From NCBI GenBank assembly GCA_023247725.1, contig JAHFFW010000003.1:64704-128703 (forward strand): DNA of 64,000 nt, read 5' to 3'. Every line of letters begins with the position of its first letter. Position 1 is the stretch's first letter. The notes under the pieces were generated by a model that was given only the letters and a program-made list of their open reading frames with translations, was not told the origin of the DNA and did not search any database. The position numbers were made by a program, and so were the translations under genes. Source of the stretch: Candidatus Omnitrophota bacterium. GTDB taxonomy: Bacteria; Omnitrophota; Gorgyraeia; Zapsychrales; JAHFFX01. Below, piece by piece: positions 989 through 61,553 of the stretch.

Positions 989-1000
989 AGCGATATCCTT

Positions 1001-5186: not shown

Positions 5187-5203
5187 GAAGTTCTGATCGG
5201 CTA

Positions 5204-6021: not shown

Positions 6022-6022
6022 T

Positions 6023-6828: not shown

Positions 6829-6833
6829 ATGTT

Positions 6834-42166: not shown

Positions 42167-42710
42167 AGATCTTCCCCAACTTGCGCGCCGATATTGGTCG
42201 ATCTATTCGGGATCCCAAAGATCCTAAAAATATTTACTTGATATTTGAACAGGGGATCTGGGCCTTGATCGCGTATCGCTTTGGCCGCTGGGTAAGGACG
42301 ATTCCCATCCCATCGTGTCGCACCTGTTGAAGGGGTTGGCTTTTTTGTGGCTTTAATCGATCGAATTGACGATGGGAATTTCCATTCCGACCAGCGTCCG
42401 CATCGGCAAAGGGTGTTCCATCGGACACTTTGGCGGAATCATTCTTCATAGCGATGTCGTGATGGGCGAAGATTGCTCGCTCAGGCCCGGCGTTATTTTG
42501 GAAACACGCGGACTGGGCCAAAGGGGTGCGCCGCATTTGGGCGACCATGTTTACGTCGGGGTGGGGGCCAAAATCCTGGGGCCGGTGCGCATCGGCCACC
42601 ATGCCAAAATCGGCGCCAATGTGGTGGTCCTTAGGAACGTCCCGGACTGCGCGACCGCCGTCGGAATTCCAGCCAAAATTGTGAGGGAAACCCATGCTGG
42701 CGACACTTAA
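42163..42710 (+). pseudogene. Hexapeptide-repeat O-acetyltransferase (serine acetyltransferase / WcaB-like), interrupted
   Basis: ATG 42163 overlaps the stop of the upstream GT2 gene. The first frame gives MKIFPNLRADIGRSIRDPKDPKNIYLIFEQGIWALIAYRFGRWVRTIPIP. The frame then shifts near 42315 to give IVSHLLKGLAFLWL, there is an in-frame TAA at about 42351, and it continues SIELTMGISIPTSVRIGKGCSIGHFGG...IGANVVVL (left-handed beta-helix). Confidence 0.55.
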
Positions 42711-44064
42711 AGAGTTCGGTCCCATTACGTTTTATATTATTGCGTTGGGCTTTTTTCTTTTGTCGGTGACGGGCCGGCCCAAATGGAGCTTACTATTGAC
42801 CATTGGACTGGCGCCTTTGCGCAATGTCGTTGAGCGTCTTGACATCTTTCCCATGGGCAAAGACCTTTTGGATGTCTTGATATTCGGACTTTTGGTTGGC
42901 TGGATCCTAACGTCGCTCCTGCGCCGCGACAAATTGTTCACCCGTTGTGCCGTCAATCCGATTGCCATCACCCTCATCCTTTATTCCCTTTTTACCGTGA
43001 TCATGGGAAGCCTGTATTTAAAGAATCCATTGCTTTTTGATGTCACCGATGACCGGATCCAAGACTGGAAGAATTTCATTCTTCTCCCCGTCCTGTTTTT
43101 TTTAACCTTCAATCTCATCGAGGATCGCAAATGGATCAAACGTGTTTTATGGGTGATGGCCGGTTCCATGATTTTGATGAATTGCTACACGACGACTCAG
43201 ATCTCCTGGTTTACGAATCTGGCCTCTCGGGAAAAAATTGTTTCGACCTTTGTTTATTTGGGGCCCAACGAGGTCGCGGCCTTTTATAACCAATACACCA
43301 TCATTCTTTTAGGAATCTATTTCTGTATGCGCAAAAGCCTCATCAAGCTATTGTTGCTGGGACTGATTGCGACCAATATTTTTTGTGTCTTGTTTTTGTT
43401 TTCACGGGGGGCTTATCTGGGGCTCTTGGGTGGCATGGTCCTTCTGGCATTCTTCAAGAAGAGAATCTTGATTGTCCCATTGATTCTGTTCGGGATTTTT
43501 TGGCAGGCGGTTCTGCCGCAAAAAGTGATTGAGCGCATTGAAATGACGACGGATGTTTATGGACACTTGGAATCATCGGCCGCCGACCGGCTGGTCATCT
43601 GGGGCGAAACGATGGATGTCATCACCAAGCAGCCGGTTTTTGGTTTGGGGTTTGGTGTCTTTCGGCATCTGGGTTTTATTTTGAAAGACACGCATAATAT
43701 TTATTTGAAAATTTTGGTGGAACAGGGCGTCTTTGGATTATTCATTTTCCTGATTCTCATCATCGTTTTTTTCCGGGAAGGGTGGAGTCTGTATCGACAA
43801 GGCAACGATGATTTATCGCGGGGATTGGGATTAGGATTTGCGATCGCGATCGGTGTTCTTTTGGTGAACAATCTGTTCGGTGACCGCTGGACTTACTGGG
43901 AGATCAGCGCCTTTATGTGGGCCTTTGCCGGACTGGTCTGCCGTTACCGTGTCATTGTGCAAGAAGAAGCCAAGTACCGCAAGACTGTCTCTGCGCCACA
44001 AAAGCCCTTCAAATCTAAACGCAAGGTTTTTCCCGACGAACCGCTGCTGGGATACAGTAATTAG
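42694..44064 (+). CDS. O-antigen ligase/polymerase-like membrane protein (Wzy_C domain; the putative O-glycosylation ligase type found in exosortase loci)
   Basis: About 11 TM segments; Wzy_C core LFLFSRGAYLGLLGGMVLLAF with the periplasmic loop VFGLGFGVFRH. Confidence 0.75.
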   Translation: MLATLKEFGPITFYIIALGFFLLSVTGRPKWSLLLTIGLAPLRNVVERLDIFPMGKDLLDVLIFGLLVGWILTSLLRRDKLFTRCAVNPIAITLILYSLFTVIMGSLYLKNPLLFDVTDDRIQDWKNFILLPVLFFLTFNLIEDRKWIKRVLWVMAGSMILMNCYTTTQISWFTNLASREKIVSTFVYLGPNEVAAFYNQYTIILLGIYFCMRKSLIKLLLLGLIATNIFCVLFLFSRGAYLGLLGGMVLLAFFKKRILIVPLILFGIFWQAVLPQKVIERIEMTTDVYGHLESSAADRLVIWGETMDVITKQPVFGLGFGVFRHLGFILKDTHNIYLKILVEQGVFGLFIFLILIIVFFREGWSLYRQGNDDLSRGLGLGFAIAIGVLLVNNLFGDRWTYWEISAFMWAFAGLVCRYRVIVQEEAKYRKTVSAPQKPFKSKRKVFPDEPLLGYSN

Positions 44065-47657: not shown

Positions 47658-49452
47658 AACCAAACAAGGTCAAATCAACGTTGGCAATATTCTCATGGGC
47701 GGATTCTTGACCGGAATCATCCTCGCCTTCATTGTTGCCTTTTTTCTCTACGGCATCTACAAAACTTATAAAGCGATGAAAGCCCCGCGGCGTTTTTCCG
47801 CGGTCGCGCCGGTTCCTCCCCAAGAAGGAACCACGTTGTTTGTGGCCTCCAGCCTTGACCGTATTTTTTCCGATGGAATGACCTTGAAAGAACCCGCCTT
47901 TTCGACGGAGGTTTCCCTTGCTCAGGCAAAAAATGAATATGAATCCTTCCAGGTGGTTGTTCAAACAACCAACACGGCACTTAAAAAGGTCTGGTTCGAG
48001 GTCTCCGACCTCATTGATCCCGCCTCCGGGGCCAGGATTGATCACGGCAATATCCTTTGGCGCGTGGTGGGCTATGTTCCGACGAAGCAACCGTATTATC
48101 CCGTCAAATTCGTAGGGAACTGGCCTGATCCTTTATTGCCCGCTCAACCGATCGATGTGGACGCACCGAAGACTCAACCATTTTGGTTTACCATTTACGT
48201 CCCCCAAAACGCTCAAGCCGGTCGCTATCAAGCAAAGATCTGGATGAAGGCCGAAGGACTTTCGACGCCTCGGGAAATTCCGGTATCTTTAAAGGTGTTC
48301 AATTTTGAATTGCCCAAACAAAACACCTTGAAAACCGCCTTTGATTTTTACGAAGGACAAACGTACAAACGTTATCCGCAAAAGGAGAATGAAAGTAACG
48401 AGGCTTATCAGGCCAGAATCGGTGCGCTCAATGACAAATTCCTCATCCTGATGCTGCAATACCGAATGAATCCGATCCTCAATGTGGATCCAACCTCTCC
48501 ATCAGATTTGGCCAGGGTGGATCGGTACCGCTGGTTTGGGCTCAATAACTTTTCCATCGGGAAAAAGGGAGGGACCTTCAACAATAATTGGCCGGCGACC
48601 GACGAGGAAATCGAGGCCTTGCGACCCGTTTATCAGGGCTATGGCGAAATGCTAAAATTCAACAAACTTCTTCCTTACAACTACATCTACACGTGGGACG
48701 AGGGGAATGTTGGCAATCCCCGCGTCGCAAAGATTTGTTCTATGATCCATCGGGCCTATCCGAAATTAAAAAATATGGTCTGTTACCACGGATTCTGGGA
48801 CCCGGCGGCGCAGCCGGACTGGGGAAAAGATATTGATATCTGGTGTTTTAATATTGATAATTTTGTCGAATCCCAAATGCGCCGAATCCAGCAAGCCGGA
48901 AAAGAAATGTGGATGTACATTTCGGGGCCCAGTGGTTTCTCCACGCCCAATTTGGCCATTGATTTTGATTCCATCGATTATCGCATCATTCCTTGGTTGT
49001 GCTGGAAATACGACATCCGCGGATTCCTTTATTGGTGTGTGAATTGGTGGCCTTTCGTTGATCCCTTCCAAAGTGCAGCGAACACTCAATGGGAACAAAA
49101 TGGCAATGGGTTGTTATTTTATCCGGGGCCGGAAGGCCCCATCGCGTCGTTGCGCGCCGAGCTTTTTCGCGACGGGATGGAAGATTACGAATATACACAA
49201 ATTCTTTTGCAGAATCTCTGGGCTTTTGAAGATCTGAGCCCCGCCTTCGGCTATAGTGCCTTAGTGAAAGAAATCAAAGGCATTTTGACGATGGATGACT
49301 CGCTCATCAAATCGATGTTTGAATACACGCGGGACGGTCGCATTTTATTCAAGCGCCGTCAGGCCATTGCGGAAAAGATCGAAGAGACTGACAAAATCCT
49401 CCGTGATTTAGCCGGCAAAAAAACCAAGATCTCTGCGACAGGTGCGGAATAA
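47647..49452 (+). CDS. Membrane-anchored hypothetical protein, possibly glycoside-hydrolase-like (DUF4091-type C-terminal region)
   Basis: N-terminal TM (ILMGGFLTGIILAFIVAFFLYGIY) and a large extracytoplasmic domain rich in W/Y (YHGFWDPAAQPDWGKDIDIWCFNIDNF...). The assignment rests on recalled family resemblance only. Confidence 0.3.
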   Translation: MRVKTKQGQINVGNILMGGFLTGIILAFIVAFFLYGIYKTYKAMKAPRRFSAVAPVPPQEGTTLFVASSLDRIFSDGMTLKEPAFSTEVSLAQAKNEYESFQVVVQTTNTALKKVWFEVSDLIDPASGARIDHGNILWRVVGYVPTKQPYYPVKFVGNWPDPLLPAQPIDVDAPKTQPFWFTIYVPQNAQAGRYQAKIWMKAEGLSTPREIPVSLKVFNFELPKQNTLKTAFDFYEGQTYKRYPQKENESNEAYQARIGALNDKFLILMLQYRMNPILNVDPTSPSDLARVDRYRWFGLNNFSIGKKGGTFNNNWPATDEEIEALRPVYQGYGEMLKFNKLLPYNYIYTWDEGNVGNPRVAKICSMIHRAYPKLKNMVCYHGFWDPAAQPDWGKDIDIWCFNIDNFVESQMRRIQQAGKEMWMYISGPSGFSTPNLAIDFDSIDYRIIPWLCWKYDIRGFLYWCVNWWPFVDPFQSAANTQWEQNGNGLLFYPGPEGPIASLRAELFRDGMEDYEYTQILLQNLWAFEDLSPAFGYSALVKEIKGILTMDDSLIKSMFEYTRDGRILFKRRQAIAEKIEETDKILRDLAGKKTKISATGAE

Positions 49453-50354
49453 TGGTTTGGAAAAAAATGGCCATCTTTTTGTTCGGCCTCCTCTTGGGAG
49501 TCGCATTCATTGGGGCTCTCGGCTCAGTGGCTTTTAAATACAGAGATAAAATCGATCTTGAGCGAATTCACAAAGTTTTTGACATCCTTCGTTCGAAATG
49601 GAGAAGCTCAAAGCTTTATAGAGAAGAATTTCGTCAACCTATTCAGGCAACCGGAGGATCAAGCTTTGGACCGCAGGGACAATTGACATTCGAATTGTAC
49701 CGTCAAGGAAAATTCCAAATCGATGGCTCTGGTTACGCCTGGCAAAAATCCGACCATTATGGAGATGTCGCGGTCATTCGTTCAACGCGTCCTCTTCCCC
49801 AAACTTATAAGATCACGATCGTTGCCGGAGCGATTGATTATGGACTGGAAAAGCTCGACGGTCTTTCGAACGACCCCCAATACCCGGAAGGGCCGGCCAA
49901 TGAGAATGGTTGTTATTTGTTGGCCATCACCGACGTCAATCCAGCGGGACATCACACCAATATCTGGTGGCATCAGCATCGCAAGCTGGTCGTGGATGTG
50001 GACAATAATGTGTGGGGCCACGGAATGCCCAACCCGATTTTTATGGTGTATTTTGATCGGGACAATAAAATGATGTCTTTTCCCGGCGAAGAGAAAACTT
50101 GGCAGCCGGATTGGCGCGCCGCCGCGCATTATGATCCCTCCCAATGGTACCGCATCGATTTGGAAAAAACCGCGGAGCGTTTTCTCTTTACCCTTTCGCA
50201 GGAAAACGGTCCGCTCCTCGCCAGAGGAGAAGCAGCCCTTAAGGACATCTGGCATGAAGACGGGAATCATTCCGATTACTTGGTCATCGGTGATCCGCAT
50301 GAAAATTATTACCAGGGGAGTTTTAAAATTAAAAGCATCGCCTTGAAACTATAG
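49452..50354 (+). CDS. Hypothetical protein with an N-terminal signal anchor
   Basis: MVWKKMAIFLFGLLLGVAFIGALG is followed by a 270-aa domain with no motif I recognise. Confidence 0.4.
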   Translation: MVWKKMAIFLFGLLLGVAFIGALGSVAFKYRDKIDLERIHKVFDILRSKWRSSKLYREEFRQPIQATGGSSFGPQGQLTFELYRQGKFQIDGSGYAWQKSDHYGDVAVIRSTRPLPQTYKITIVAGAIDYGLEKLDGLSNDPQYPEGPANENGCYLLAITDVNPAGHHTNIWWHQHRKLVVDVDNNVWGHGMPNPIFMVYFDRDNKMMSFPGEEKTWQPDWRAAAHYDPSQWYRIDLEKTAERFLFTLSQENGPLLARGEAALKDIWHEDGNHSDYLVIGDPHENYYQGSFKIKSIALKL

Positions 50355-50364: not shown

Positions 50365-51138
50365 ATGAGTTCGGGATTACCTCCTATATTAATGTACCAT
50401 GGCATTATCGATGTTGAGAAAAACTTCCCCGAAGACCGGGAACCCGGAGCTTCTCTTTATGATTTACCGCTAGCGGTCTTTCGTCAGCATTTGGAGTTTT
50501 TGAAGAAAAACAATTTCCAAGTCAACACATGTGATTCGGATAAAAAGAAAAATGGCGGCAAGCAGGTTGTCCTGACATTTGATGACGGAGAGATGAACAA
50601 CTTCCTTCACGTGTTTCCAATGTTGCAACAATACGACTTTCCGGCTTATTTTTTTATCACGGTCGATCGGATCGGGAAAAAAGGATATATGGATTGGCCC
50701 CATCTTAAAGTGATGATTCAAAATAATCTGATCATTGGTTCGCATGGGATGCGCCATGAGATTCTGACCAAGTTGAATGAAGCGGAGTTGGTCCAAGAGT
50801 TGCGGTTGTCTCGCAAAATTTTAGAAGATCGTCTTCAAAAAAATATTTTTAGCTTCTCGGTCCCGCGGGGATTTTTCAATCTGCGAATTTTAAAACTTGC
50901 GAAGGAGGCCGGTTATTCAGAAATTTTTGTTTCCGGTTGTCCGCAGAATTTACCGGATGAATGCTGGGGCCGAATCGCCGTCAAAAGCCGCTGGGGAACA
51001 GATCGGTTAGCCATGGCGTTGGAAGGGCGTATCCCTTTGAACGAAAAAATTTTTGAGGCGGTCAAAAATACAATCCAATCCTGCATAGGGGATGAAAACT
51101 ACGATCGGTGGCGGGACAAAATATTAATGAAGTCTTGA
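50365..51138 (+). CDS. Polysaccharide deacetylase (CE4 / NodB homology domain; the exosortase-locus-associated type)
   Basis: VVLTFDDGEMNNF (the TFDDG motif), GSHGMRHE, and further His/Asp metal-binding contexts. Confidence 0.85.
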   Translation: MSSGLPPILMYHGIIDVEKNFPEDREPGASLYDLPLAVFRQHLEFLKKNNFQVNTCDSDKKKNGGKQVVLTFDDGEMNNFLHVFPMLQQYDFPAYFFITVDRIGKKGYMDWPHLKVMIQNNLIIGSHGMRHEILTKLNEAELVQELRLSRKILEDRLQKNIFSFSVPRGFFNLRILKLAKEAGYSEIFVSGCPQNLPDECWGRIAVKSRWGTDRLAMALEGRIPLNEKIFEAVKNTIQSCIGDENYDRWRDKILMKS

Positions 51139-51304
51139 CCCTAATTTCAATCTTGTGGATAATAAAAACACCGGAGGATGTTGTCGGGAAAAAATTCGGG
51201 CACTCTTTCCCGACGAGAAATGACGGTTTGACAACAAAAGAGGGCCGTGTTATACTTCCAGCGTAATAAATCCCGTTCTTTTGTTCGTCAATGTTCTGAA
51301 GTGA

Positions 51305-51390
51305 TAAAGGCAAACCCGGGGAAACCCGGCGACGCAAAACTACAGGGCCTAAACCCTCGTTTATCGAGGCAAAGGTAGCCAGTTGCCAAA
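51305..51390 (+). ncRNA. Candidate cyclic-di-GMP-I (GEMM) riboswitch aptamer
   Basis: Read directly: GGCAAACC-[CCGGG-GAAA-CCCGG]-CGACGCAAAAC-TACA-GGGCCTAAACC-[CTCG-TTTAT-CGAG]-GCAAAGGTAGCC-AGTTGCC. This gives a GNRA-capped P2, an ACGCAAA(A/G)C linker, a GGCCUAAACC P3 segment and a P1 pairing GGCAA/TTGCC, matching GEMM-I hallmarks as I recall them. Confidence 0.6.
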
Positions 51391-51478: not shown

Positions 51479-51535
51479 TGGTCAGATCATGTCCGTATGC
51501 TACTTTGGGTAACACAAGAGGGAAAGGAGTCAGGA

Positions 51536-53827
51536 ATGTCAGCTAATGAGTTAAGCAAAAGAGTTTTGCCCCTCGGTCTTATGTTTTTGTTCATGATGCC
51601 CTTGGCCTTACAGGCGTCGACATATTATGTCCGTCCGGATGGTGGCTCGGCAAGCCAGTGCACGGGGTTAAGCGATGCCCCTTATCCTGGTTCTGGCAAT
51701 AACCAAGCCTGTGCTTTTAATCATCCCTATTGGGCGCTGGCACCGCTGGGAAACAATCCGACTAAATTCGTCGGAGGAGACACACTGATCATTGATGGTT
51801 CTAATGGCGCCCAGTATATGATGGGATATGGAGCCCCGAATTCTGGCGACACCTCCATCTGTTATGCCAACTGGCCCTGGGATTGTTTCATGCGGCCGAT
51901 TCCTTCCGGACCCCGTCCCGACCAGCCGACGCGAATTCTGGGCAAGGGTTGGAATAACGGTTGCGCCAATCCGCCGCAATTGTGGGGCAATGAACGACCC
52001 AACACCATCATCAACTTAAATGGAAGCAGTAATGTCGAGGTGCAGTGTCTGGAAGTGACCGATCATTCCTCCTGCCAACTGGGAGGCCCAAGTCCTTGTA
52101 ATCGGGACAATCCTCCTTTCGGGCCTTGGGCGGTCACTGGCATTTCCGCATCCGATAGTTCGAATGTCTTACTAAAGAATCTCAATATCCATGGCTTGTA
52201 CCGCGGCCTTCACGCCGGCCGCTTGAAGGACTGGACTTTGGAAGACGTGAAGATTGTCGCGAATTCATTCGTTGGTTGGGATGGGGATATCGGCGCGTAC
52301 AATTCTTCCAATTCCGGGACGTTGAGTTTCAACCGGGTTAAAATCCTTTATAACGGTTGCGGGGAAACTTATCCGGATCGAAAGCCCTATAATTGTTACA
52401 GCCAGGACCAAGGCGGATATGGGGACGGATTGGGTACGCACCAGACCGGCGGCTACTGGATTTTTAATAATGTGGACTTCAGCCATAATGTTTCCGACGG
52501 ATTGGACCTTTTGTATCACAACGGCAATGGATCTATCACCATCAAGCGTTCTCGATTTGAAGGCAATGCCGGTAATCAGGTGAAGGTCAATGCCAATACC
52601 CTGATCGAAAATTCCTTGCTCGTAGGAAATTGTGGATACTTTAAAACGCAACCCTTCACCTATAATCCCAGCACGTTCAATAATTGTCGTGCTGCTGGCA
52701 GCACATTGGCTGCAGGGTTCGCAGCTGGCCGAACCATTGAAATCCGTAATTCGACGATCACGAGCAACGGCGATGTCGTGATCATGTCCTCCGGCGATGG
52801 TTGTAATGGAACCGAGGTCTTAAGGTCCAGGAATAATATCTTTTTGGGAGGAACGGAGTTTAATGACGGCTACGATCTTTCCGCTCTCTATTATGCGTCT
52901 GGCCGAACCGGTAATGGCGACGGGACTTGCGGCTCCGTGCCGTTTGATGACGATTATTCCGTGATTTGGAATACGAAGGGGAATAGCGCGGTCTGTTCCG
53001 GAAAACCTCATTCAAAATGTCTAGATCCGAAGCTCATCGGGCCGATTGTTCAATATTTCACTGGCGATACGTACAATCTTAATCTTTTATCGGATAGTCC
53101 AGCGAAAGATATTGCCTTGGTCATTGCGGGAATGTCGAGCCTTGATTACAACAGTTTTGATCGCGGATCGGTTTGGGATTCGGGTGCGTTCGAGTATGGA
53201 TCCGTTCCATCCGTGCCATCAGGAGGCGGGTCGAATCTGCTGCCGGTTTGTGGCAATGGAAAATTGGAGAGTCCTGAGCAATGCGATGACGGTAATCTCA
53301 ATAATGGTGACGGCTGCAATAACCTCTGTGTCAAAGAAATCGCTCTGACCCCGGTCTGCGGTAATGGGAAACTGGAAGGAACCGAGCAGTGCGATGATGG
53401 GAACCTCAATAATGGAGATGGCTGCAGCAGCGTTTGCGTTAAGGAAGCGCCAGTCTCGGTTTGCGGAAACGGAAAATTGGAAAGCGGCGAGCAATGCGAT
53501 GACGGTAATCTCGTTTCCGAGGATGGATGCAGCGCCAGCTGCCAAAAGGAACCTCCTCGGACGCCGGTCTGTGGTAACCGTGTCGTTGAACCCGGTGAAA
53601 CGTGTGATGATGGCAATACCATCGATGAAGATGGATGCAGCAGTCGTTGCCAAATCGAACCTCCCACAACCAAATTTGTTTGCGGTAACGGGAAAAGAGA
53701 GGGTTCGGAACAATGCGATGATGGGAATTTGAGAGATGGCGATGGGTGCAGCCACAGTTGCACAATTGAATATAAGTCTCCTCCTAGAAAACAACCGGTC
53801 ATAAAAAAGCGAGTCATTCGAAGGTAA
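51536..53827 (+). CDS. Secreted right-handed beta-helix (pectate-lyase-fold) protein with five C-terminal cysteine-rich repeats (CGNGxxExxEQCDDGNxxxGDGCSxxC)
   Basis: Signal peptide MSANELSKRVLPLGLMFLFMMPLALQAS. Parallel beta-helix sequence features (NVEVQCLEVTD, NVLLKNLNIHG, repeated N/G-rich rungs). Five ~35-aa Cys-rich repeats of the Myxococcus-type disulfide repeat. No PEP-CTERM motif. Confidence 0.7.
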   Translation: MSANELSKRVLPLGLMFLFMMPLALQASTYYVRPDGGSASQCTGLSDAPYPGSGNNQACAFNHPYWALAPLGNNPTKFVGGDTLIIDGSNGAQYMMGYGAPNSGDTSICYANWPWDCFMRPIPSGPRPDQPTRILGKGWNNGCANPPQLWGNERPNTIINLNGSSNVEVQCLEVTDHSSCQLGGPSPCNRDNPPFGPWAVTGISASDSSNVLLKNLNIHGLYRGLHAGRLKDWTLEDVKIVANSFVGWDGDIGAYNSSNSGTLSFNRVKILYNGCGETYPDRKPYNCYSQDQGGYGDGLGTHQTGGYWIFNNVDFSHNVSDGLDLLYHNGNGSITIKRSRFEGNAGNQVKVNANTLIENSLLVGNCGYFKTQPFTYNPSTFNNCRAAGSTLAAGFAAGRTIEIRNSTITSNGDVVIMSSGDGCNGTEVLRSRNNIFLGGTEFNDGYDLSALYYASGRTGNGDGTCGSVPFDDDYSVIWNTKGNSAVCSGKPHSKCLDPKLIGPIVQYFTGDTYNLNLLSDSPAKDIALVIAGMSSLDYNSFDRGSVWDSGAFEYGSVPSVPSGGGSNLLPVCGNGKLESPEQCDDGNLNNGDGCNNLCVKEIALTPVCGNGKLEGTEQCDDGNLNNGDGCSSVCVKEAPVSVCGNGKLESGEQCDDGNLVSEDGCSASCQKEPPRTPVCGNRVVEPGETCDDGNTIDEDGCSSRCQIEPPTTKFVCGNGKREGSEQCDDGNLRDGDGCSHSCTIEYKSPPRKQPVIKKRVIRR
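53243..53770 (+). repeat. Five tandem ~105-bp coding repeats (the Cys-rich modules of the 51536 gene)
   Basis: Direct DNA repeats ccggt(t/c)tg(t/c)gg(c/t)aatgg(a/g)aaa(t/c)tggaa... repeated five times. They also create spurious long antisense ORFs. Confidence 0.8.
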
Positions 53828-53928
53828 GAATGACGAAAGATGCCGGGAAGGGCCCCCAGACCTTTCCCGGCGTCAACCCTTGAATCAAATCCCTAGACCT
53901 TTTTGACCAAAATCAATCGAATTATGGC

Positions 53929-53957
53929 TTGACAAGCTCTTCCAGCCTGCTAATAAT
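53929..53957 (+). promoter_or_regulatory. Sigma70-like promoter (TTGACA-N16-TAATAAT) in front of the second pseudopilin operon
   Basis: TTGACA at 53929-53934 and TAATAAT at 53951-53957; about 60 nt upstream of ATG 54018. Confidence 0.4.
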
Positions 53958-54017
53958 CGTTCTTGCCCGGCTTCCTCCAAGAATTCACGTTGCACCAAGT
54001 AACTTCTTTTATCCTCA

Positions 54018-54404
54018 ATGAAGAGAATGAAAACCGCCAAGGGTCTCACGCTGGTTGAGTTGCTCATTGCCGTGTTTCTGCTTTCTGTCGGTATCGCCAG
54101 CACCCTCATGTTTTTTTCGAATGCCATGCTCTCGGCGGATTTTGCCGGGGACATCAGCGTCGCTTCGACCCATGCCGAACATGTTCTTGAAGAGATGAAG
54201 TCTCGTCGGAGCCTAGAAGAGATCCAGGGCACCAATTGGCAAGAATGGGCCTTGCAACAGGATTTCAATATGCTGCCGAATGAAAGGGTGGAGGTCAACT
54301 TCGGCAATATTGAAGGTGCCCTTATGGATGTTACAGCCCAAATCCATTGGATCAAACGGGCCCGCGATAATCAGGTTTCTTTTATGACGACCTTATCCCG
54401 ATGA
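54018..54404 (+). CDS. Prepilin-type protein (PilV/GspI-like minor pilin)
   Basis: MKRMKTAKGLTLVELLIAVFLLSVGIAS; possibly starts at ATG 54027. Confidence 0.75.
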   Translation: MKRMKTAKGLTLVELLIAVFLLSVGIASTLMFFSNAMLSADFAGDISVASTHAEHVLEEMKSRRSLEEIQGTNWQEWALQQDFNMLPNERVEVNFGNIEGALMDVTAQIHWIKRARDNQVSFMTTLSR

Positions 54405-54883
54405 AGATACAAAAGCGGAAGGCTTTCACCTTACTGGAAATTTTGGTGACGGTCGCCCTGTTCACCTTTTTGGTGGCAGCGGTCTATCAGGCTTTTTTGG
54501 TAGGAAATCGATCCTGGACTAGTTATAACTACAGGGTCTCCATGCAAAGAGAATTGCGCTGGACCCTTTATGCATTGGTCAAGGATCTGCGAGAAGCCAA
54601 GGAAATTTTGGTGACTCAAGATGATACGAAGAGCGTTTTGAGCTTTAATAAACCAGGATCTGGCATCATCATTTACACCTGGTTCAAAGCGGGTGATCGG
54701 GCACAGCATTTGCTCCGGCAAGAAGAATCCAAAGAACGAACGATTGCCCAGCATGTTTCAAATCTGGAATTTATTCAGCCTTCCACCAAAGAAATTTTCG
54801 TTGATATCACGGTCACAGAGAGACCATTATTCGCCGCGCCATTGAGCTTGAATTTGAAACAAAAAGTCAAGGTCCGAATATAA
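54401..54883 (+). CDS. Prepilin-type protein (PilW/GspJ-like minor pilin)
   Basis: MKIQKRKAFTLLEILVTVALFTFLVAAVYQAFL. Confidence 0.75.
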   Translation: MKIQKRKAFTLLEILVTVALFTFLVAAVYQAFLVGNRSWTSYNYRVSMQRELRWTLYALVKDLREAKEILVTQDDTKSVLSFNKPGSGIIIYTWFKAGDRAQHLLRQEESKERTIAQHVSNLEFIQPSTKEIFVDITVTERPLFAAPLSLNLKQKVKVRI

Positions 54884-54897
54884 ATTTATAAAAGTCC

Positions 54898-56037
54898 ATG
54901 GGCCACAGAATTTCAAACAATAGGGGAGCTGCCCTCATCCTGGCCTATATTGTCATGGCTGCTTTAGTGACTCTTTCCGCCGGGTTTGCCCTTTCCACAT
55001 TCAATGAACTCAACGATGCCCGTCGATACCGGGATTCGTTGGCTGCCTTTTGGCTGGCGGAATCGGCCCTGGCGTCTTTTCTGCAAAATACCTCCATGCT
55101 GGATAAATCCGGAGCCATGAATATGACTTACCCTCAGGGCAGCGTGGTTTTACAAAAAGATGATTCTTATCCCACGAAAAGGTTGGTCACCGCGACGGGC
55201 AACGTGGGTGGGACCAAACGCAGTTTGCAGTTGGAGTTTCCCGCGTTAGCGCCGGAGGTATTCAATAATACGGTTTCGGTCAAAGGGGATATTCTTATTT
55301 CTGGGAAAAAATCCAATCTTGCGTTTAACGACAAAACCCGGATCAGCGGCCAGGTCGCCAAGAGCTCGCAGTTTTCTACGGTTAATTTTGAAGACCTCAA
55401 AGAAAAAACCGATTCGCATCTGGTTTCCATGCTGTATCCCGACGCAAATAATAATGGAGTCGTGGACGAATTTGAGGATTTTGTTCAGGTGAATCGAAAT
55501 TTGGTCACGACCTACCCGAAGGAGGAAGTCATTTATGTCAAGGGCAACGATACTTATACGGTTGTTCCCAGCAGTGCCTTGAAGGGCAAAAAGATTATTT
55601 TCGTGGAAGGAAGCCGCAGCGGCAAAGGCAATGTGATCATTCAATATATGGATGGCTGGCAAGATGACGAAAATTTAACCATCATCGCGACCGGCAATGT
55701 CACCTTCAATCAGCTGGGGATGGGCCAAACCAATTCGCAGCTTAATGTCATTGCCTGGGGCGGTTATTCGGAAACTGCCGCTTTGCCGGGAACTCGTCGA
55801 GGCATGATCTATACGCATGGAATCGCGAGTTTTGATGCCATTGATGAAACCTCGATCACTTACGGCAGTGTCGTGGCCAATGAAGGCTTAAAAATCAAAG
55901 AAATCTGGTCATATAAATCCTTTTACTATGCGGATACTCGCATCAATGGAGTTGTGCCTCCAGGTTTTGAAGGTCTTATCGGTGGAAGACTTTCGAGTGG
56001 GTATGCCGTCAAACCTAATGCATGGCGGGAAATTTAG
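54898..56037 (+). CDS. PilX-N-domain minor pilin / large pseudopilin
   Basis: MGHRISNNRGAALILAYIVMAALVTLSAGFALSTFNELNDARRYRDSLAAFWLAESAL has the PilX N-terminal architecture; 379 aa. Confidence 0.65.
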   Translation: MGHRISNNRGAALILAYIVMAALVTLSAGFALSTFNELNDARRYRDSLAAFWLAESALASFLQNTSMLDKSGAMNMTYPQGSVVLQKDDSYPTKRLVTATGNVGGTKRSLQLEFPALAPEVFNNTVSVKGDILISGKKSNLAFNDKTRISGQVAKSSQFSTVNFEDLKEKTDSHLVSMLYPDANNNGVVDEFEDFVQVNRNLVTTYPKEEVIYVKGNDTYTVVPSSALKGKKIIFVEGSRSGKGNVIIQYMDGWQDDENLTIIATGNVTFNQLGMGQTNSQLNVIAWGGYSETAALPGTRRGMIYTHGIASFDAIDETSITYGSVVANEGLKIKEIWSYKSFYYADTRINGVVPPGFEGLIGGRLSSGYAVKPNAWREI

Positions 56038-56038
56038 A

Positions 56039-56611
56039 ATGAGCCACAGAATTTATCTTGTGATTGGAATTGGGATTACGATTTTTGTGATTTTTTCCGC
56101 AATCGTTAACCGTTCCATCAATAAAACTTTTCGCGGACCGGAGATTGCACAACCAAAGGCACAAAAAACATCACCATCACCACCGCCGGAAAAAAAGTCA
56201 AAGCTTCCCGAACCTTTGGTTGTGCCGCCAAAGTCGGTTGGCCGACATACCTTGGACCCCGATGATCCTGCGCGGTTCGGAATTCTTGTGCAAAAAGAAG
56301 GGCAGGTCAAAACCCAGTCTCAATGGGACATCGATATGGATCGGGTTTTGATCCGTTCCCAAGTCCCAATACAGAAAGCGCCGGCCTTTGCTCAAACCAA
56401 AGTAACCGCAAAGGAATTTCAAAAAAAAATGCAACTCGTCAATGAACGGATTACACAATGCGAACGCCTCGCGGCTAACGATCCCAGCAATGAAGAAGCT
56501 AGGCAAAAACTACAGACCTTTTACATGCTCAAGTCGACACTGGCCTCTTTGGAACATGCGATTGTTATCCCCGAATCCTCCAATTCCGGTTTAGAAAATT
56601 CGCCGAAGTGA
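56039..56611 (+). CDS. Membrane-anchored Pro-rich / coiled-coil protein; hypothetical (possible pilus-assembly accessory)
   Basis: TM YLVIGIGITIFVIFSAIV, a Pro-rich stretch KTSPSPPPEKKSKLPEPLVVPP, and a C-terminal helical region. Confidence 0.4.
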   Translation: MSHRIYLVIGIGITIFVIFSAIVNRSINKTFRGPEIAQPKAQKTSPSPPPEKKSKLPEPLVVPPKSVGRHTLDPDDPARFGILVQKEGQVKTQSQWDIDMDRVLIRSQVPIQKAPAFAQTKVTAKEFQKKMQLVNERITQCERLAANDPSNEEARQKLQTFYMLKSTLASLEHAIVIPESSNSGLENSPK

Positions 56612-56809
56612 TTTGGCCTTTCTAAATTTTGCGAAATTTCACAAATATTTGTTTTGAAAAAACTTCCGCCAGATATGATAATTCCCCTGTTCGTTAAATT
56701 ATTCCATTCTTGTTGGGGCCATTAACGCTGGCCAGGAACTCTCGATCATGATAGTGGATGATCCGCAAGCAGAGGGTTTTTAAAAGTAAAATTGAGGCCA
56801 GGATGGGCC

Positions 56810-57964
56810 ATGGCAAAATTTCTTTTTTGGTATTTTTTATTTTTAATCGGATATTGCTATTTTGGTTATCCGATCATACTGAGCCTCCTTGCTCGTCTAC
56901 GACCGAGACCGATTAAGAAGGCGCCTATGTTTCCTTTTGTTAGTATCATTATTTCCGTCTGCAATGAAGCGGAGGTGATTGAAAAAAAACTAAAGAATCT
57001 TCTGGCTTCGGATTACCCGGCGGAACAAATGGAAATACTGGTCGGTTCCGATGGGTGCGTGGATCAAACAGTCCAAATCATAAAGGAATTTTCTGATTAT
57101 AGGATAAGGCTCTTTGAATTCCCCTCCCGCCGGGGAAAATCGAGTGTTTTAAATGATCTTGTCCCGCAGGCTAAAGGTGAGATCCTGATCTTCACCGATG
57201 CTAGGCAAATCTTTGCTAAGAATGGCATAGAGGCTTTAGTCCAAAATTTTGCCGATCCGAAGGTCGGCTGCGCCAGTGGAGAATTGATTCTGGGCCAAAG
57301 TCAGGCATCGACTGGCAAGGGCATTCACTTGTATTGGAATTATGAAAAATTTTTACGCCGCGCCGAAAGCCAAATCCATTCGATGATCGGAGCGACCGGC
57401 GCCATTTATGCAATCCGCAAAGAACTGTACACCCCACTGCCGCCCGATGTCGTGCTTGATGACGTGTATATCCCGTTGAGGGTGGTGGAACGCGGTTTCC
57501 GGTGCATTTTTGACAACGAGGCTAGGGCCTACGATCAGGTTGCAGAAAACCCGTCGCAGGAGCATGCCCGCAAAGCGCGGACCCTGTATGGGAATTACCA
57601 GATCTTTACCCTCTTTTCCGATATGTTCAATCCGGCCAAAAGTTATTTGGCTTTTCAGCTTTTCTCTCATAAATTTTTGCGCGTTATGGTGCCTTTTTTA
57701 CTGGTGGGATTATTCGCGGTCAATATCCCTCTTATGTTTGAACCATTCTACCGGGTGATATTTTTTTCGCAGGTCATATTTTATGGGCTGGCTTTTTTAG
57801 GGTACCAGTTAAGAAATTCAAAATGGATTATCCCTGAGCCTATTTCCCGACTGACATACATTCCATATGTTTTTTGCCTGTTGAATTATTCGGCATTGGT
57901 AGGATTTGTTCGATTTGTGACTTCCGGGCAAAGCGTGGCTTGGGAAAAGGCCGGGGATGTCTAA
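56810..57964 (+). CDS. Integral-membrane GT2 family glycosyltransferase
   Basis: Two N-terminal TM segments, a GT2 catalytic domain (FVSIIISVCNEAEV...LVGSDGCVDQT, FTDARQ) and four C-terminal TM segments. No QxxRW motif was found. Confidence 0.75.
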   Translation: MAKFLFWYFLFLIGYCYFGYPIILSLLARLRPRPIKKAPMFPFVSIIISVCNEAEVIEKKLKNLLASDYPAEQMEILVGSDGCVDQTVQIIKEFSDYRIRLFEFPSRRGKSSVLNDLVPQAKGEILIFTDARQIFAKNGIEALVQNFADPKVGCASGELILGQSQASTGKGIHLYWNYEKFLRRAESQIHSMIGATGAIYAIRKELYTPLPPDVVLDDVYIPLRVVERGFRCIFDNEARAYDQVAENPSQEHARKARTLYGNYQIFTLFSDMFNPAKSYLAFQLFSHKFLRVMVPFLLVGLFAVNIPLMFEPFYRVIFFSQVIFYGLAFLGYQLRNSKWIIPEPISRLTYIPYVFCLLNYSALVGFVRFVTSGQSVAWEKAGDV

Positions 57965-58805
57965 GGCTCTTAAAGATTTTATGCAAAAAATCATCAAAAT
58001 TTATTCTCGCGAGTTGATTGTGGCCGTGGTGTTTTTGCTGGCCTATGCGCCCATATTCGTTTGGATGTGGAACCGCTGGTTTGCCCCGGATTCCTATTAC
58101 AGCCACGGGATTCTTGTCCCTTTTGTGACCGGCTATCTCATTTGGCTAAATAGAGACACCTTAAAAAATGTGGAAAAGCGACAAGGTGAAATGGTGGGCA
58201 TGGTTATGCTCGCCTTCGGGATCTTTGCCCTGATCTTAAGTTCGTTTTTACGGAGCTATCCGGCGGGGGCACTCACGATGATTGTGGTGTTGGCGGGTCT
58301 TATCATTACGTTTTTTGGCACTCGCGTCATGAAGACGATCGCCTTCCCGATTGCCTTTTTATTTTTCATGATTCCTTTGCCTGAGTATATGATTACGAAG
58401 ATCAGTTTTAATATGAAAATTTTTGCCGCTCAAATCGCTACCGATATCCTTAATAATCATTTGCGTATTCCGGCCTTGCGCGAAGGAAGTCTGATTAAAA
58501 TGAGAAGCGCTTATGTGATGGTCGATGATGTGTGCAGTGGTTTGCGTTCGCTGATTTCGTTATCAGCGCTGGGAAGTGTTTTTGCTTACTGGATGAAACG
58601 GCCTATGTACAAGCGGATCCTACTTTTTCTTCTCACCATTCCCATTGCGATCATCACGAATGTCGTTCGTGTCATCCTTTTGGCCACGATCAGTGAAGTT
58701 TGGGGACCGCAATTTGCAACCGGCTTGACTCACGATATTTCGGGTTTTTTGATGTTCGCCTTGGCTTTTGTTTTATTATACGCAACCGCGAAAGTGATTG
58801 AATGA
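57957..58805 (+). CDS. Exosortase (XrtA/EpsH family)
   Basis: Eight TM segments with conserved exosortase motifs YSHG, FFMIPLPE, the catalytic Cys in DDVCSGLRSL, and NVVRVILL. Confidence 0.92.
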   Translation: MSKALKDFMQKIIKIYSRELIVAVVFLLAYAPIFVWMWNRWFAPDSYYSHGILVPFVTGYLIWLNRDTLKNVEKRQGEMVGMVMLAFGIFALILSSFLRSYPAGALTMIVVLAGLIITFFGTRVMKTIAFPIAFLFFMIPLPEYMITKISFNMKIFAAQIATDILNNHLRIPALREGSLIKMRSAYVMVDDVCSGLRSLISLSALGSVFAYWMKRPMYKRILLFLLTIPIAIITNVVRVILLATISEVWGPQFATGLTHDISGFLMFALAFVLLYATAKVIE

Positions 58806-59443
58806 GATTAAATCAAAACCAGACATTTTGGGGGACAATTTTTTTTCTTGGTTTGGCCGGAATTATTTCTTGGATATTTTATTACCGAGAATTTACTCAA
58901 AAAGATACCATCGATATCCACAATTTTCCGAAGACAATTGGTGAATGGAAAGGGGAGGACCTGCCAATTTCAGAATACGAATACGGTATTTTAGAAACGC
59001 GCAACGTCCTCGCCCGAAAATATATTCATCCCGATCAACGGATTGTCTATCTTTTGCTCGTCTATTCGCAACATAATCGGAAAGTGACGCATCCTCCAGA
59101 AATCTGCTACACCGGAGGAGGGATTTCCATTCTCGAAAATGTCACTACTCCTATTGAACCCCTACACTTCACTGAAAAGATTATGGCAAACCGGCTTTTA
59201 TTGGAATACAAAGGGGCAAGGCAATATGCGTTTTACTGGTTCAAAGTTGGATCTTCCTACACGCCCAGTTACTGGAAACAGCAAATCCTCATTGTTTCTA
59301 ATATTCTAGAGGGGCGCTCCCGCGGTTGTGCCCTGATTCGCGTCTCCAGCGATATCCTTGACAAAAATACCGACATCGCTACAAGAAATGTAACAGAGTT
59401 TACCAATCTTCTTTTACCCTTGCTCTCTACCTACCTGCCTTAA
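58802..59443 (+). CDS. Exosortase-associated EpsI family protein
   Basis: N-terminal TM, then the conserved HPPEICYTGGG motif typical of EpsI; translationally coupled to the exosortase gene. Confidence 0.85.
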   Translation: MRLNQNQTFWGTIFFLGLAGIISWIFYYREFTQKDTIDIHNFPKTIGEWKGEDLPISEYEYGILETRNVLARKYIHPDQRIVYLLLVYSQHNRKVTHPPEICYTGGGISILENVTTPIEPLHFTEKIMANRLLLEYKGARQYAFYWFKVGSSYTPSYWKQQILIVSNILEGRSRGCALIRVSSDILDKNTDIATRNVTEFTNLLLPLLSTYLP

Positions 59444-59689: not shown

Positions 59690-59756
59690 TATATAAGGAT
59701 GCGTTGTTGTATAGGAAAAGAATTTCAACTTTTTGAACCCTACAACTCATTACACT

Positions 59757-60605
59757 ATGCAACCATCCAAACTGAACTCCCCAAGGTATCTGGTAATAAG
59801 TCTTCTTTTACTGATGGTCTTTGGTTCTTTACCGAGACAGGCAGAGGCCGTGACTTTTGTAAAGCCACAGGACGCTCGCCTCGTAATTGCAGAGGGGAAG
59901 ATTAATGAAATTCCAGAAAATTTGCCTTCCGAGTCTAAATCTCATGCCCCTGAACCTGCGACTCTAGCTTTGTTTGGCAGCGGAATCTTTGGAATGATCG
60001 TTAGTTTTTTGAAGAGGGCTTATTTGGTTGCCAAAAGAATTTTTGATATAATCGTGTCTTTATTAGGCATTTTAATTCTATCGCCTTTATTTCTTCTGGC
60101 TGCAATTCTTATCAAAAGCTCATCCAAGGGGCCGATTCTCTATAAACAAATTCGGGTTGGCCAAAAGGGGAAACTCTTTGAAATTTACAAATTTCGCTCT
60201 ATGAAAATGGATGCGGAAAAGGAGTGCGGGCCAGTCTGGGCCAAGAAAGATGATGACCGCTTGATTACGGTAGGAAAATTTTTAAGAATGAGTCGAATTG
60301 ATGAGTTGCCCCAATTTTTCAATATCCTCAAGGGCGATATGAGCTTGATCGGTCCTAGGCCCGAACGGCCGGTTTTTGTGGAAAAGTTTAAAGAAATGAT
60401 CCCAGATTACGAAAAGCGATTATTGGTTAAGCCAGGGATCACCGGTTTAGCCCAGGTTTGGCATAAGTACGATGAAACCATTAAGGATGTACGTAAAAAG
60501 ATCAAATACGATGTTCTTTACATTAAGAAACTGAATTTTGGGACTGATGTGAGAATTTTTTTGAGAACCTTTCTGGTCGTTTTAACAGGGCAGGGGGCCC
60601 AATAG
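59757..60605 (+). CDS. Polyprenyl-phosphate sugar phosphotransferase (bacterial sugar transferase, small WbaP/PssY-like type) whose open frame begins with a signal peptide plus an internal PEP-CTERM-like motif
   Basis: Catalytic domain RIFDIIVSLLGILILSPLFLLAAILIK...FEIYKFRSM...SLIGPRPERP. N-terminally in the same frame: signal peptide MQPSKLNSPRYLVISLLLLMVFGSLPRQAEA, a 35-aa spacer, then PEPATLALFGSGIFGMIVSFLKR. Confidence 0.8.
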   Translation: MQPSKLNSPRYLVISLLLLMVFGSLPRQAEAVTFVKPQDARLVIAEGKINEIPENLPSESKSHAPEPATLALFGSGIFGMIVSFLKRAYLVAKRIFDIIVSLLGILILSPLFLLAAILIKSSSKGPILYKQIRVGQKGKLFEIYKFRSMKMDAEKECGPVWAKKDDDRLITVGKFLRMSRIDELPQFFNILKGDMSLIGPRPERPVFVEKFKEMIPDYEKRLLVKPGITGLAQVWHKYDETIKDVRKKIKYDVLYIKKLNFGTDVRIFLRTFLVVLTGQGAQ

Positions 60606-60686: not shown

Positions 60687-61553
60687 ATGAAAAAGTCATT
60701 CATTACAATTGGGGCATTGCTCATCTGCACAGCTCCAGTTTGGGCTCAGCCTTTTTCCGCGCCCATGGGCAGCGATACCTACGGAATCAGTCAAGGAGGA
60801 GCCAATAATCTTTTGATCCCGACGCCTAACGACGATAACGATAATCCCGGGCCTTATGGCGGAACCCCTTATACTCTAGGTGGAGGACCCAATCCGGCTG
60901 ACATCAATGACGCTATCAATCTATTATTGGGCACAAACTATGTCCATAATTCCGACGTGGATTTTCTTCGCCATACTGGACCGGATAATGCCTGGCAGGA
61001 TTTAAGTTCCCAAAATCAACAGGGACCTTTCGTTTTTATTTCGTTAACCGCAGATTTTACTAACAGCCTTTATACATACGACGTCGGTGATCCGACCACT
61101 CTTTATCAAGTCATTCCCGGCCAGACAGGATACGGTTTTGTGGGTGACGGAAGCGCAGGAAAGCCGTTTGTTGGCGGGGTCAATCCTTTATCGTCAAACA
61201 ATTTTGGCTGGGCTCTGGTGAGTGATTATAATGGCACGGAATATATTTGGGATTCTAACCCGGCGTTCAATCCGGATGATTTAGATCACATGCTAACCTA
61301 TCATTTGGCTAACCTCCAGGGTCGTACCGTTTATGTCGATGTCGATGGAAATATTCAGCAATATAAATTTAACGATCCTTACCTTTTGGCTTGGGAAGAC
61401 CTTCCATTACGAAATGGTAAACTTGGGGACGAAGATTACGACGATTCCATATTTCTGGTTGATCGAGTTCGGCCTATACCAGAACCCATCAGTTTAGTCT
61501 TATTGGCCAGTGGCTTCATGGGAATGATCGGATTGAAAAGAAAAATAGGATAA
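60687..61553 (+). CDS. PEP-CTERM sorting-domain protein (exosortase substrate)
   Basis: Signal peptide MKKSFITIGALLICTAPVWAQ; C-terminal PIPEPISLVLLASGFMGMIGLKRKIG. Confidence 0.9.
   Translation: MKKSFITIGALLICTAPVWAQPFSAPMGSDTYGISQGGANNLLIPTPNDDNDNPGPYGGTPYTLGGGPNPADINDAINLLLGTNYVHNSDVDFLRHTGPDNAWQDLSSQNQQGPFVFISLTADFTNSLYTYDVGDPTTLYQVIPGQTGYGFVGDGSAGKPFVGGVNPLSSNNFGWALVSDYNGTEYIWDSNPAFNPDDLDHMLTYHLANLQGRTVYVDVDGNIQQYKFNDPYLLAWEDLPLRNGKLGDEDYDDSIFLVDRVRPIPEPISLVLLASGFMGMIGLKRKIG

Follow-up and report, generated by a model that had tools for sequence, protein, structure and literature searches.

What are pilin-like genes doing in the midst of an exopolysaccharide (EPS) locus, and to which of their neighbors do they belong? 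The question is raised by a stretch of 64,000 nucleotides from a Candidatus Omnitrophota bacterium (assembly GCA_023247725.1, contig JAHFFW010000003.1, positions 64,704 to 128,703), referred to below as the window. Between positions 53929 and 56611 of its forward strand lie three pilin-like genes, g1, g2, and g3, and one gene for a non-pilin membrane protein, g4. As the initial annotation described, this cassette is preceded by a riboswitch-controlled gene for a secreted beta-helix protein and followed by genes for a family 2 glycosyltransferase (GT2), an exosortase, and EpsI. The family to which g1–g4 belong, and their paralogy with other cassettes of the phylum, can be stated with confidence. 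It seems on balance probable, with considerable room for doubt, that the four genes are a duplicated minor-pilin priming or tip set of the Omnitrophota type IVa pilus that has become specialized and works with a machine encoded in trans. More specifically, the set may serve to export the beta-helix enzyme, to display it on the surface, or to attach the matrix, a role that is offered here tentatively.

The genes of the cassette are tightly packed. g1 (54018–54404, + strand) encodes a PilV/GspI-like minor pilin of 128 residues, or of 125 residues with the start at 54027 chosen by the gene caller, and its N-terminus reads MKRMKTAKG↓LTLVELLIAV. It overlaps by 4 nucleotides with g2 (54401–54883, +), a PilW/GspJ-like minor pilin of 160 residues with the N-terminal sequence KRKA↓FTLLEILV. 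After a gap of 14 nucleotides follows g3 (54898–56037, +), whose 379-residue product begins with NNRG↓AALILAYIV and is a cap pilin of the PilX/GspK/ComZ type with a beta-solenoid. g4 (56018 or 56039 to 56611, +) encodes a bitopic membrane protein of 197 or 190 residues and is separated from g3 by 1 nucleotide or overlaps it. Position 53929 itself is the first base of a promoter-like TTGACA (−35) hexamer and not the start of a gene; the 30-residue open reading frame listed there is spurious.

Both g1 (25.8 bits) and g2 (27.6 bits) score above the gathering threshold of the Pfam N_methyl model (PF07963, 21.2 bits) and have a prepilin cleavage/methylation motif followed by a hydrophobic helix. 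The N-terminal helix is also present in g3, where the lack of Glu5 marks the variant found in GspK and PilX; g4 has no prepilin motif. The genes of the initial annotation are real and correctly placed; its count of four prepilin genes plus a membrane protein is amended to three pilin-like genes and g4. The signal G/A↓(F/M/L)TLxE is conserved in 23 of 25 exosortase-linked homologues of g1 and in 25 of 26 of g2, and Glu5 occurs in none of 63 homologues of g3, the pattern of GspK and PilX. At E ≤ 0.001, g3 has 108 homologues, mostly about 375 residues long, and their source organisms, where named, are all Candidatus Omnitrophota or Omnitrophica. Because of these homologues, and because the cassette recurs in dozens of contigs, g1–g4 cannot be chance reading frames.

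Established family models recognize the cassette faintly. The score of g1 against the PilV model TIGR02523 is 32.2 bits (cutoff 52.2), and that of g2 against the GspJ model TIGR01711 is 23.9 bits (cutoff 64.85). The GspI equivalog gives 16.1 bits (cutoff 44.35), XpsI 18.5 bits (cutoff 150), and g3 has a weak N-terminal match to GspK (17.9 bits, cutoff 130). None of g1–g3 reaches the cutoff of an NCBIfam equivalog for the minor pseudopilins GspI, GspJ, or GspK of type II secretion. Among the cyanobacterial Hps equivalogs (HpsA–D) the sole match is HpsC (16.1 bits, cutoff 200), over the N-terminal signal of g1; among the Verru_Chthon cassette models (TIGR02596–02600), g2 scores 16 bits against TIGR02599 (cutoff 256.5). 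The g3 of the window has no match in Pfam, PilX_N (PF14341) included, and a homologue in locus L040 does exceed the PilX_N threshold (30.2 versus 25.5 bits), as do three others by precomputed assignment (P0100, P0106, and P0107). Profile searches against PDB sequences were set aside as a guide to the folds of g1 and g2, since their matches are confined to the N-terminal helix of major pilins. In its features the cassette is like a tip set of the GspI-J-K or PilV-W-X type; it is a distinct family without a name. The PilV-, PilW-, and PilX-like character first proposed for the set is supported, as is the statement that genes for an ATPase, a secretin, and PilY1 are all missing from the cassette.

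The third pilin is the most informative member. An AlphaFold2 model built from 102 homologues has a mean pLDDT of 92.6 and a pTM of 0.80. In it, a 55-residue N-terminal helix (residues 8–63) is packed on a four-stranded antiparallel sheet (73–116), the arrangement of a pilin, and a beta-solenoid spanning approximately residues 126–343 is inserted between that sheet and a last strand at 375–378. Foldseek places the Thermus competence pilin ComZ (6qvi) first among PDB entries (E = 1.9e-6, probability 1.0), followed by the ice-binding beta-solenoids of DUF3494 (E = 1e-4 to 1e-3). With ComZ the predicted structure shares the insertion of a beta-solenoid into a pilin fold; the TM-score is at most 0.34 and the identity about 10%, and at such low TM-scores the match holds at the level of architecture. 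ComZ has been argued to be accommodated only at the pilus tip, where it acts as a DNA receptor (PMC6561018). By analogy, the bulky solenoid of g3 would fit only at the tip of a filament.

The rank of ComZ among the structural matches raises the possibility that the cassette is the tip set of a competence (DNA-uptake) pilus, like ComZ-PilA2 of Thermus, and that its position in an EPS locus is incidental. This seems very improbable. At 10% identity the surface lysines through which ComZ binds DNA have no residue-level counterpart in g3, solenoids of the ice-binding type match nearly as well, and no competence genes lie near the cassette. All cyanobacterial PilX proteins are described as having the architecture of g3, a pilin fold interrupted by a beta-solenoid resembling ice-binding proteins, and this solenoid has been proposed to plug the filament tip instead of PilY1 (Schuergers et al., bioRxiv 10.64898/2026.02.12.705559). 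Since this fold is common to the PilX proteins of the competence (Com) and EPS types, it is no sign of DNA binding.

g4 is a regular fourth member of the cassette, specific to certain lineages, as is seen from an alignment of 23 homologues drawn from each of the three genomic contexts described below. Its single N-terminal transmembrane helix is followed by a variable proline-rich linker, the motifs DPxxYG and TQxxWD, and a C-terminal hairpin resembling a tetratricopeptide repeat (TPR). A profile search of the PDB finds consensus TPR proteins over positions 126–152 (E = 2.7e-8), a single hairpin only, and none of the 23 members matches a Pfam family. The gene is missing from one exosortase-linked subclade (L019, L022, L023, L024, L027, and L029).

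Where does such a cassette come from? A survey of species-representative genomes with the g3 alignment yielded 80 loci, nearly all in metagenome-assembled genomes of Omnitrophota; a series carrying the label "uncultured Planctomycetales" does not differ from them in gene content. BLASTP comparison of the window proteins with all reading frames of the fetched loci distinguishes three contexts. In some 20 genome loci (class A), with g3 identities of 37–64%, the cassette is linked to an exosortase in the order (orf300)–(deacetylase)–beta-helix–g1–g2–g3–(g4)–(deacetylase)–GT2–exosortase–EpsI–sugar transferase, to which the window conforms. Elsewhere (class B) it stands alone amid housekeeping genes, in one case between valS and a QRPTase gene, in another between truA and rplM/rpsI. 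A third group (class C) lies in type IVa pilus clusters. In L040, g1, g2, a g3 of the PilX_N family, and g4 are followed in turn by genes for PilM, PilN, PilO, a small T2SSB-like protein, and finally a secretin; in many other loci a secretin gene lies about 2.5 kb downstream, or two ATPase genes and a platform gene lie within 10 kb. Such pilMNOPQ and pilB/T/C genes adjoin the cassette in distant homologues and not in the window or its clade. From the three contexts it follows that the family is a type IVa pilus minor-pilin cassette of Omnitrophota. Type IVa pili are common across the phylum, according to a study that is silent on exosortases (Seymour et al. 2023, PMC10066038). A fresh invention of the cassette within the EPS locus was rejected: it is a paralogue of a type IVa pilus cassette that elsewhere stands directly upstream of pilMNOPQ.

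In a neighbor-joining tree of 50 full-length g3 sequences (200 bootstrap replicates), the class A sequences form one group in 200 of 200 replicates, and L028, known from a 2-kb contig, falls inside it. This group joins the stand-alone copies in 155 of 200 replicates, and the pilus-linked copies branch more deeply. On two contigs, JAHFFX010000004.1 (L007 and L020) and CAYXGG010000001.1 (L008 and L021), one cassette of class A occurs together with one of class B; the stand-alone copy lies about 20 kb away, on the opposite strand and beyond the end of the EPS locus. On the contig of the window no second cassette was found upstream of the secretin discussed below, 65 kb further upstream being outside the search, and only about 4 kb of contig remain beyond the end of the window.

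It is conceivable that an ordinary type IVa pilus minor-pilin operon merely came to rest beside an EPS locus to which it has no functional tie. The homologous cassettes amid housekeeping genes or in pilus clusters would be natural relatives of such an operon, and a second cassette is visible in two genomes only. Several features of the exosortase-linked loci make a chance neighborhood rather unlikely, however. Adjacency holds although the identity of g3 drops to 37% and that of the exosortase to about 40%; it survives rearrangements in which the deacetylase gene has moved or g4 has been lost; the bootstrap support for the exosortase-linked group is complete; and a stand-alone paralogue is present in the same genome where this is checkable.

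The linkage can be examined from the side of the exosortase as well. The cassette adjoins GT2, exosortase, and EpsI genes in more than 20 related loci and is therefore not a one-off insertion. In the reverse survey, an exosortase alignment compared with metagenome contigs gave 80 loci at 41–61% identity, 28 of which extend 4.5 kb or more upstream of their exosortase. A g3 gene occurs in 9 of these 28, every time together with a beta-helix match; the other 19 have no pilin gene within 10 kb and keep the core of deacetylase, GT2, exosortase, EpsI, and transferase. The recurrence that the initial annotation had asked for is thus found, and it is qualified by the many related exosortase loci that lack the cassette. 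In L099, orf300, deacetylase, GT2, and exosortase follow one another as in the window, without riboswitch, beta-helix gene, or g1–g4. From the side of the cassette, of the 12 genome loci that reach far enough upstream, 11 have a beta-helix gene there, L019 being the exception; so do L091, L113, L122, L142, L146, and, in part, L137. These gene orders make the cassette an accessory of this type of exosortase locus, gained and lost with the beta-helix gene, and not a core component of the exosortase system. They point to the beta-helix gene as its tighter partner, the link to the exosortase not being obligatory. The 19 loci without pilins would also be expected of a pilus operon with no tie to its surroundings; the joint gain or loss of cassette and beta-helix gene, seen on comparing L099 with the window, would not.

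The same counts bear on another proposal, namely that the pseudopilus is the outer-membrane export step for PEP-CTERM proteins, their glycoconjugates, or EPS, and hence a real component of the exosortase system. The more than 20 loci in which the cassette adjoins GT2, exosortase, and EpsI are what such a component would show, and type II secretins are reported to be necessary for slime secretion in cyanobacteria and myxobacteria (PMC12475490). We consider it improbable nonetheless, for 19 of the 28 close exosortase loci do without a cassette within 10 kb, the cassette follows the beta-helix gene more closely than the exosortase, and the locus already contains Wza-like and Wzm/Wzt exporters.

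The partner gene (51533–53827, +), which directly precedes the cassette in nearly all exosortase-linked loci, encodes a secreted right-handed beta-helix with a signal peptide and five C-terminal, cysteine-rich DUF4215 repeats (Pfam, 3.1e-35). No PDB entry matches by sequence, so that the predicted fold alone is informative. The AlphaFold model has a pLDDT of 84 overall and above 90 across the helix, and Foldseek relates it to GH136 lacto-N-biosidases (1.7e-8) and the PL9 pectate lyase Pel9A (3.7e-7), and further to rhamnogalacturonan and PL6 alginate lyases, the epimerases AlgE4 and AlgG, and the Vibrio polysaccharide lyase RbmB. Homologues number more than 2000. The N-terminal 70% of the protein is about 50% identical to proteins of Chloroflexi, Anaerolineae, and Bipolaricaulia, and many cysteine, aspartate, and histidine residues are invariant among homologues P0109–P0228. 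The C-terminal modules are exchanged by lineage (DUF4215, PKD, Big, dockerin, or a type IX secretion C-terminal domain), a variability that fits an extracellular catalytic or binding module. The signal peptide, the fold resembling lyases, hydrolases, and epimerases, and the C-terminal domains of the homologues indicate that the protein is probably extracellular, and the module appears from its sequence relatives to represent a widespread family of extracellular enzymes. To our knowledge this family is uncharacterized. Two variations on the partner gene were seen: L022 (1691–9023) has two tandem beta-helix paralogues, and L142 (84–4983) encodes a beta-helix protein of 1066 residues with about ten CADGIEYCTTQ...GYYWY repeats.

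Signals for transcription lie on both sides of the partner gene. Upstream, at 51299–51390 (+), is a c-di-GMP-I riboswitch (RF01051, 72.2 bits). Riboswitches of the RF01051/RF03167 clan also precede the beta-helix orthologue in L007, L009, L010, L014, L015, L022, L027, L113, and L122; none reaches the gathering score before the orthologues of L008, L011, L091, and L146. Just 3′ of the stop codon, a GC-rich, terminator-like hairpin is predicted by RNA folding at 53839–53874 (+). An equivalent hairpin occurs in 11 other class A loci (L007, L008, L009, L010, L011, L022, L024, L027, L113, L122, and L146), in most of which it is followed by a run of U residues that the window lacks. Beyond it is a candidate sigma-70-like promoter (53929–53957, +; TTGACA-17-AATAAT, 11 of 12 positions), and the closest relatives, L007 and L008, also have TTGACA-17-(A/G)ATAAT at 11 of 12 positions. 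Promoter-like sites are common by chance, the region containing 13 as compared with 7.9 ± 2.9 in shuffled sequence. The initial annotation had given the cassette a promoter of its own, and at the level of sequence the conserved site and the terminator-like hairpin upstream agree with it. Read-through from the riboswitch into the pilin genes was discarded as a default assumption, given the conserved hairpin and the promoter-like site between the two units. A separate transcription unit of this kind would equally suit an ordinary pilus operon.

A cassette without ATPase, platform, or secretin would need a machine and a prepilin peptidase encoded elsewhere. A candidate machine is encoded at 1–7463 (+), where Pfam matches identify a secretin gene truncated at the edge of the window, together with genes for an ATPase and a platform protein and six pilin-like genes, in agreement with the secretin-ATPase-platform-pilin operon first recognized there. 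On the parent contig a PilM-like gene and two more genes lie upstream of the secretin. The ATPase (1001–2734, +) is of the MshEN type, the GspF/PilC platform gene occupies 2751–4001 (+), and the six pilin-like genes 3998–7463 (+). The prepilin motifs visible in the six all keep Glu5, and none of these pilins matches PilX_N or GspK, which makes the operon a reasonable partner for a set that includes such a subunit. The six were considered as paralogues of g1–g3 and rejected as such, the likeness being limited to the N-terminus. One of them, at 5251–6021, has its prepilin motif at residues 124–148, after a long basic N-terminal stretch, and is 256 residues long on the parent contig too; either its start is wrong or it is an unusual pilin with a long leader. 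Residues 4–56 of the ATPase contain the tandem stretches KLGEILVQQGVITGEQLTQAIAAQ and RIGELLVKQGIVSEEDIVVALATQ, which to the eye look similar to the c-di-GMP-binding motif of MshEN domains. Were this likeness real, the machine proposed as partner might itself respond to c-di-GMP, like the riboswitch at 51299.

The favored reading, that of a specialized tip set, implies the following sequence of events. A prepilin peptidase from another locus would cleave the products of g1–g3, which would then assemble as a priming complex of the GspI-J-K or PilV-W-X type on a machine supplied in trans, for which the operon at 1–7463 is the candidate in the window. The product would be a specialized short pilus or pseudopilus capped by the beta-solenoid of g3. 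The likeliest task of such a filament would be to move the beta-helix enzyme, with which the cassette is inherited, through the secretin, in the manner of type II secretion, or else to display or hold that enzyme, or the matrix, on the cell surface while matrix is produced in a c-di-GMP-dependent way. One can go further and regard the cassette and the beta-helix gene as a portable module, a cargo together with its own pseudopilus tip, in which a substrate-dedicated tip of the GspIJK type re-programs a shared secretin machine to export or display a single matrix-remodelling enzyme. By extension, the module would fill in the outer-membrane step that is missing for the matrix components associated with the exosortase in this clade. 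This whole reading is speculative, and we think it distinctly unlikely.

A number of observations weigh against a specialized tip set serving the beta-helix enzyme. Because of the conserved hairpin and the separate promoter-like site, the beta-helix gene and the cassette are not obviously co-transcribed; the riboswitch, by its placement, probably controls the beta-helix gene only and perhaps not the pilins. The two partners can be parted: L019 has the cassette without a beta-helix gene, and in L142 the beta-helix gene stands directly before g3 and g4, with no g1 or g2. Most exosortase-linked genomes show only one cassette in the survey, which could be their general pilus set. No prepilin peptidase (PilD/GspO) is found among the annotated genes of the window. 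Finally, export of the polysaccharide has no need of a pilus, since Wza-like, Wzz/kinase, and Wzm/Wzt components are encoded in the locus itself; a requirement for the pilins in that process was ruled out for the same reason.

The surrounding locus has the components of a PEP-CTERM system: an exosortase, EpsI, and PEP-CTERM cargo. Upstream of the riboswitch is a polysaccharide deacetylase gene (50365–51138). The cassette is followed by a PgaC-like membrane GT2 (56792–57964, +), the exosortase (57957–58805, +; TIGR02602, 165.5 versus 105.55 bits), and EpsI (58802–59443, +; TIGR02914, 85.8 versus 42.8 bits), after which come a priming sugar transferase and PEP-CTERM proteins. Scores above the PEP-CTERM cutoff are reached by 60687–61553 and by the N-terminal part of 59733–60605. 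Against the XrtA model TIGR03109 the exosortase scores 175.1 bits, short of the cutoff of 208, and the N-terminal regions of XrtD and XrtW score slightly higher than XrtA and far under their own cutoffs. Since the general exosortase model is passed and the XrtA cutoff missed, the locus is best called XrtA-like; the exosortase and EpsI of the initial annotation stand, and its assignment to xrtA (175 versus 208) does not. Several associated markers also fall slightly below their equivalog cutoffs, among them ChnLen at 267 versus 279 and the ATPase at 308 versus 324.5 bits. A full EPS locus extends from 25.7 to 50 kb, with a Wza-like exporter, a chain-length determinant, a pepcterm_ATPase-like protein, a tyrosine kinase, Wzm/Wzt, about eight glycosyltransferases, a Wzy_C/PEP_O_lig_1-like protein, and a GH123-like protein. 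Just beyond the end of the window lie genes for a TPR protein, a GAF-histidine kinase, and a sigma-54 response regulator.

Several other features of this locus deserve mention. The priming sugar transferase (Bac_transf, 59733–60605) has a signal peptide at its start, then a short segment and, at residues 72–93, the PEP-CTERM motif PEPATLALFGSGIFGMIVSFLKR, which passes both the Pfam and the NCBIfam cutoffs; because the motif precedes Bac_transf, an exosortase sorting signal lies N-terminal to a cytoplasmic enzyme domain. The transferases of the relatives L003 and L004 have the same faint match. Second, divergent exosortases, about 30% identical, occur in L113 (1–1209), where EpsI is paired with it, and in L161 (5133–5957). 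The gene orf300 (49452–50354; 300 residues, no family match) accompanies the deacetylase in L009, L010, L015, L099, L122, L134, and L149 and is a conserved member of this locus type with no assigned function. A sigma-54 gene at the edge of the EPS locus (23713–25107, −), together with the GAF-histidine kinase and the sigma-54-dependent regulator, recalls the PrsK/PrsR regulation of PEP-CTERM systems. The Wzy_C protein of the window (42694–44064) best matches the model for an exosortase-associated O-glycosylation ligase and has a weak match to the pilin O-oligosaccharyltransferase TfpM. In L019, a Wzy_C-like/TPR membrane protein (1181–2890) takes the place of the beta-helix gene directly before g1. 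Judged by such sequence matches, glycosylation of the pilins with the glycan of the locus is a possible alternative link between pilins and EPS.

If the cassette is indeed a specialized tip set, the exchange of tip sets as a way of specializing one pilus or secretion machine would extend beyond cyanobacteria to the ultra-small, possibly host-dependent Omnitrophota, and pilus or type II secretion machinery would be linked to c-di-GMP-regulated matrix production in this phylum. In any case, an unnamed four-gene family is added that spans the phylum and includes g4, so far annotated only as a hypothetical protein. The route by which exosortase-system proteins traverse the outer membrane is still an open question (PMC12188702), for which a conserved set of tip pilins beside an exosortase and a secreted glycan enzyme provides a concrete candidate, in hosts that are uncultured.

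The surrounding locus resembles the XrtA/PEP-CTERM exopolysaccharide system, reportedly set out by Haft and colleagues in 2006 and summarized in PMC12188702, in its exosortase, EpsI, PEP-CTERM proteins, priming sugar transferase, Wza-like exporter, and chain-length determinant, and also in its tyrosine kinase, pepcterm_ATPase-like protein, and PrsK/R/T-like regulators. It differs in the adjoining pilins: the exosortase-associated families matched in the locus include no pilin, and we know of no pilin gene among the described marker families of that system. In Nostoc, the exosortase CrtB has been linked to pilus motility and polysaccharide adhesion through PEP-CTERM proteins and not through pilins (PMC12188702). 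A full-text literature search for "exosortase" together with "pseudopilin" returned archaeal reviews only. To the knowledge of the initial annotation, a pilin-like module is not part of the described PEP-CTERM system; the search is in keeping with that view, which the EPS/HpsA-type sets of cyanobacteria temper by precedent.

The tip of the type II secretion pseudopilus is formed by GspI-GspJ-GspK, with GspH, and the priming complex of the Pseudomonas and Myxococcus pili by FimU-PilV-PilW-PilX-PilY1. Like these, the cassette has the gene order small, medium, and large pilin, a third subunit without Glu5, and a presumed reliance on a separate ATPase, platform, and secretin. Lyases, moreover, are a classic class of type II secretion cargo, and the neighboring beta-helix protein is lyase-like. 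Unlike these systems, the cassette has no fourth pilin of the GspH or FimU type and no PilY1, contains the additional g4, is encoded some 47 kb from the nearest genes of a machine, and scores far under the cutoffs of the equivalog models.

With ComZ-PilA2 of Thermus thermophilus the shared feature is a large beta-solenoid built into a pilin framework. ComZ is a DNA-binding protein of about 550 residues, whereas the context of g3 is that of polysaccharide and not of competence. The closest precedent is found in the paired core minor-pilin sets of cyanobacteria, where the EPS/HpsA and Com types prime different filaments (bioRxiv 10.64898/2026.02.12.705559). The Omnitrophota and the cyanobacterial sets have no detectable sequence relationship and belong to different phyla. 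The Omnitrophota cassette comprises three pilins and the non-pilin g4, with no FimT-type fourth pilin, and lies directly between a riboswitch-controlled beta-helix enzyme and the GT2-exosortase-EpsI genes. That a genome may encode several minor-pilin sets, one of them tied to polysaccharide and equipped with a solenoid-bearing PilX, is already established in cyanobacteria. PilX_EPS/PilV_EPS and PilX_Com/PilV_Com are likewise more than one set of the PilV/PilW/PilX type in a single genome, with shared machinery in their case, and both they and the hps locus of Nostoc combine a solenoid-bearing PilX with a set that is associated with polysaccharide and motility functions.

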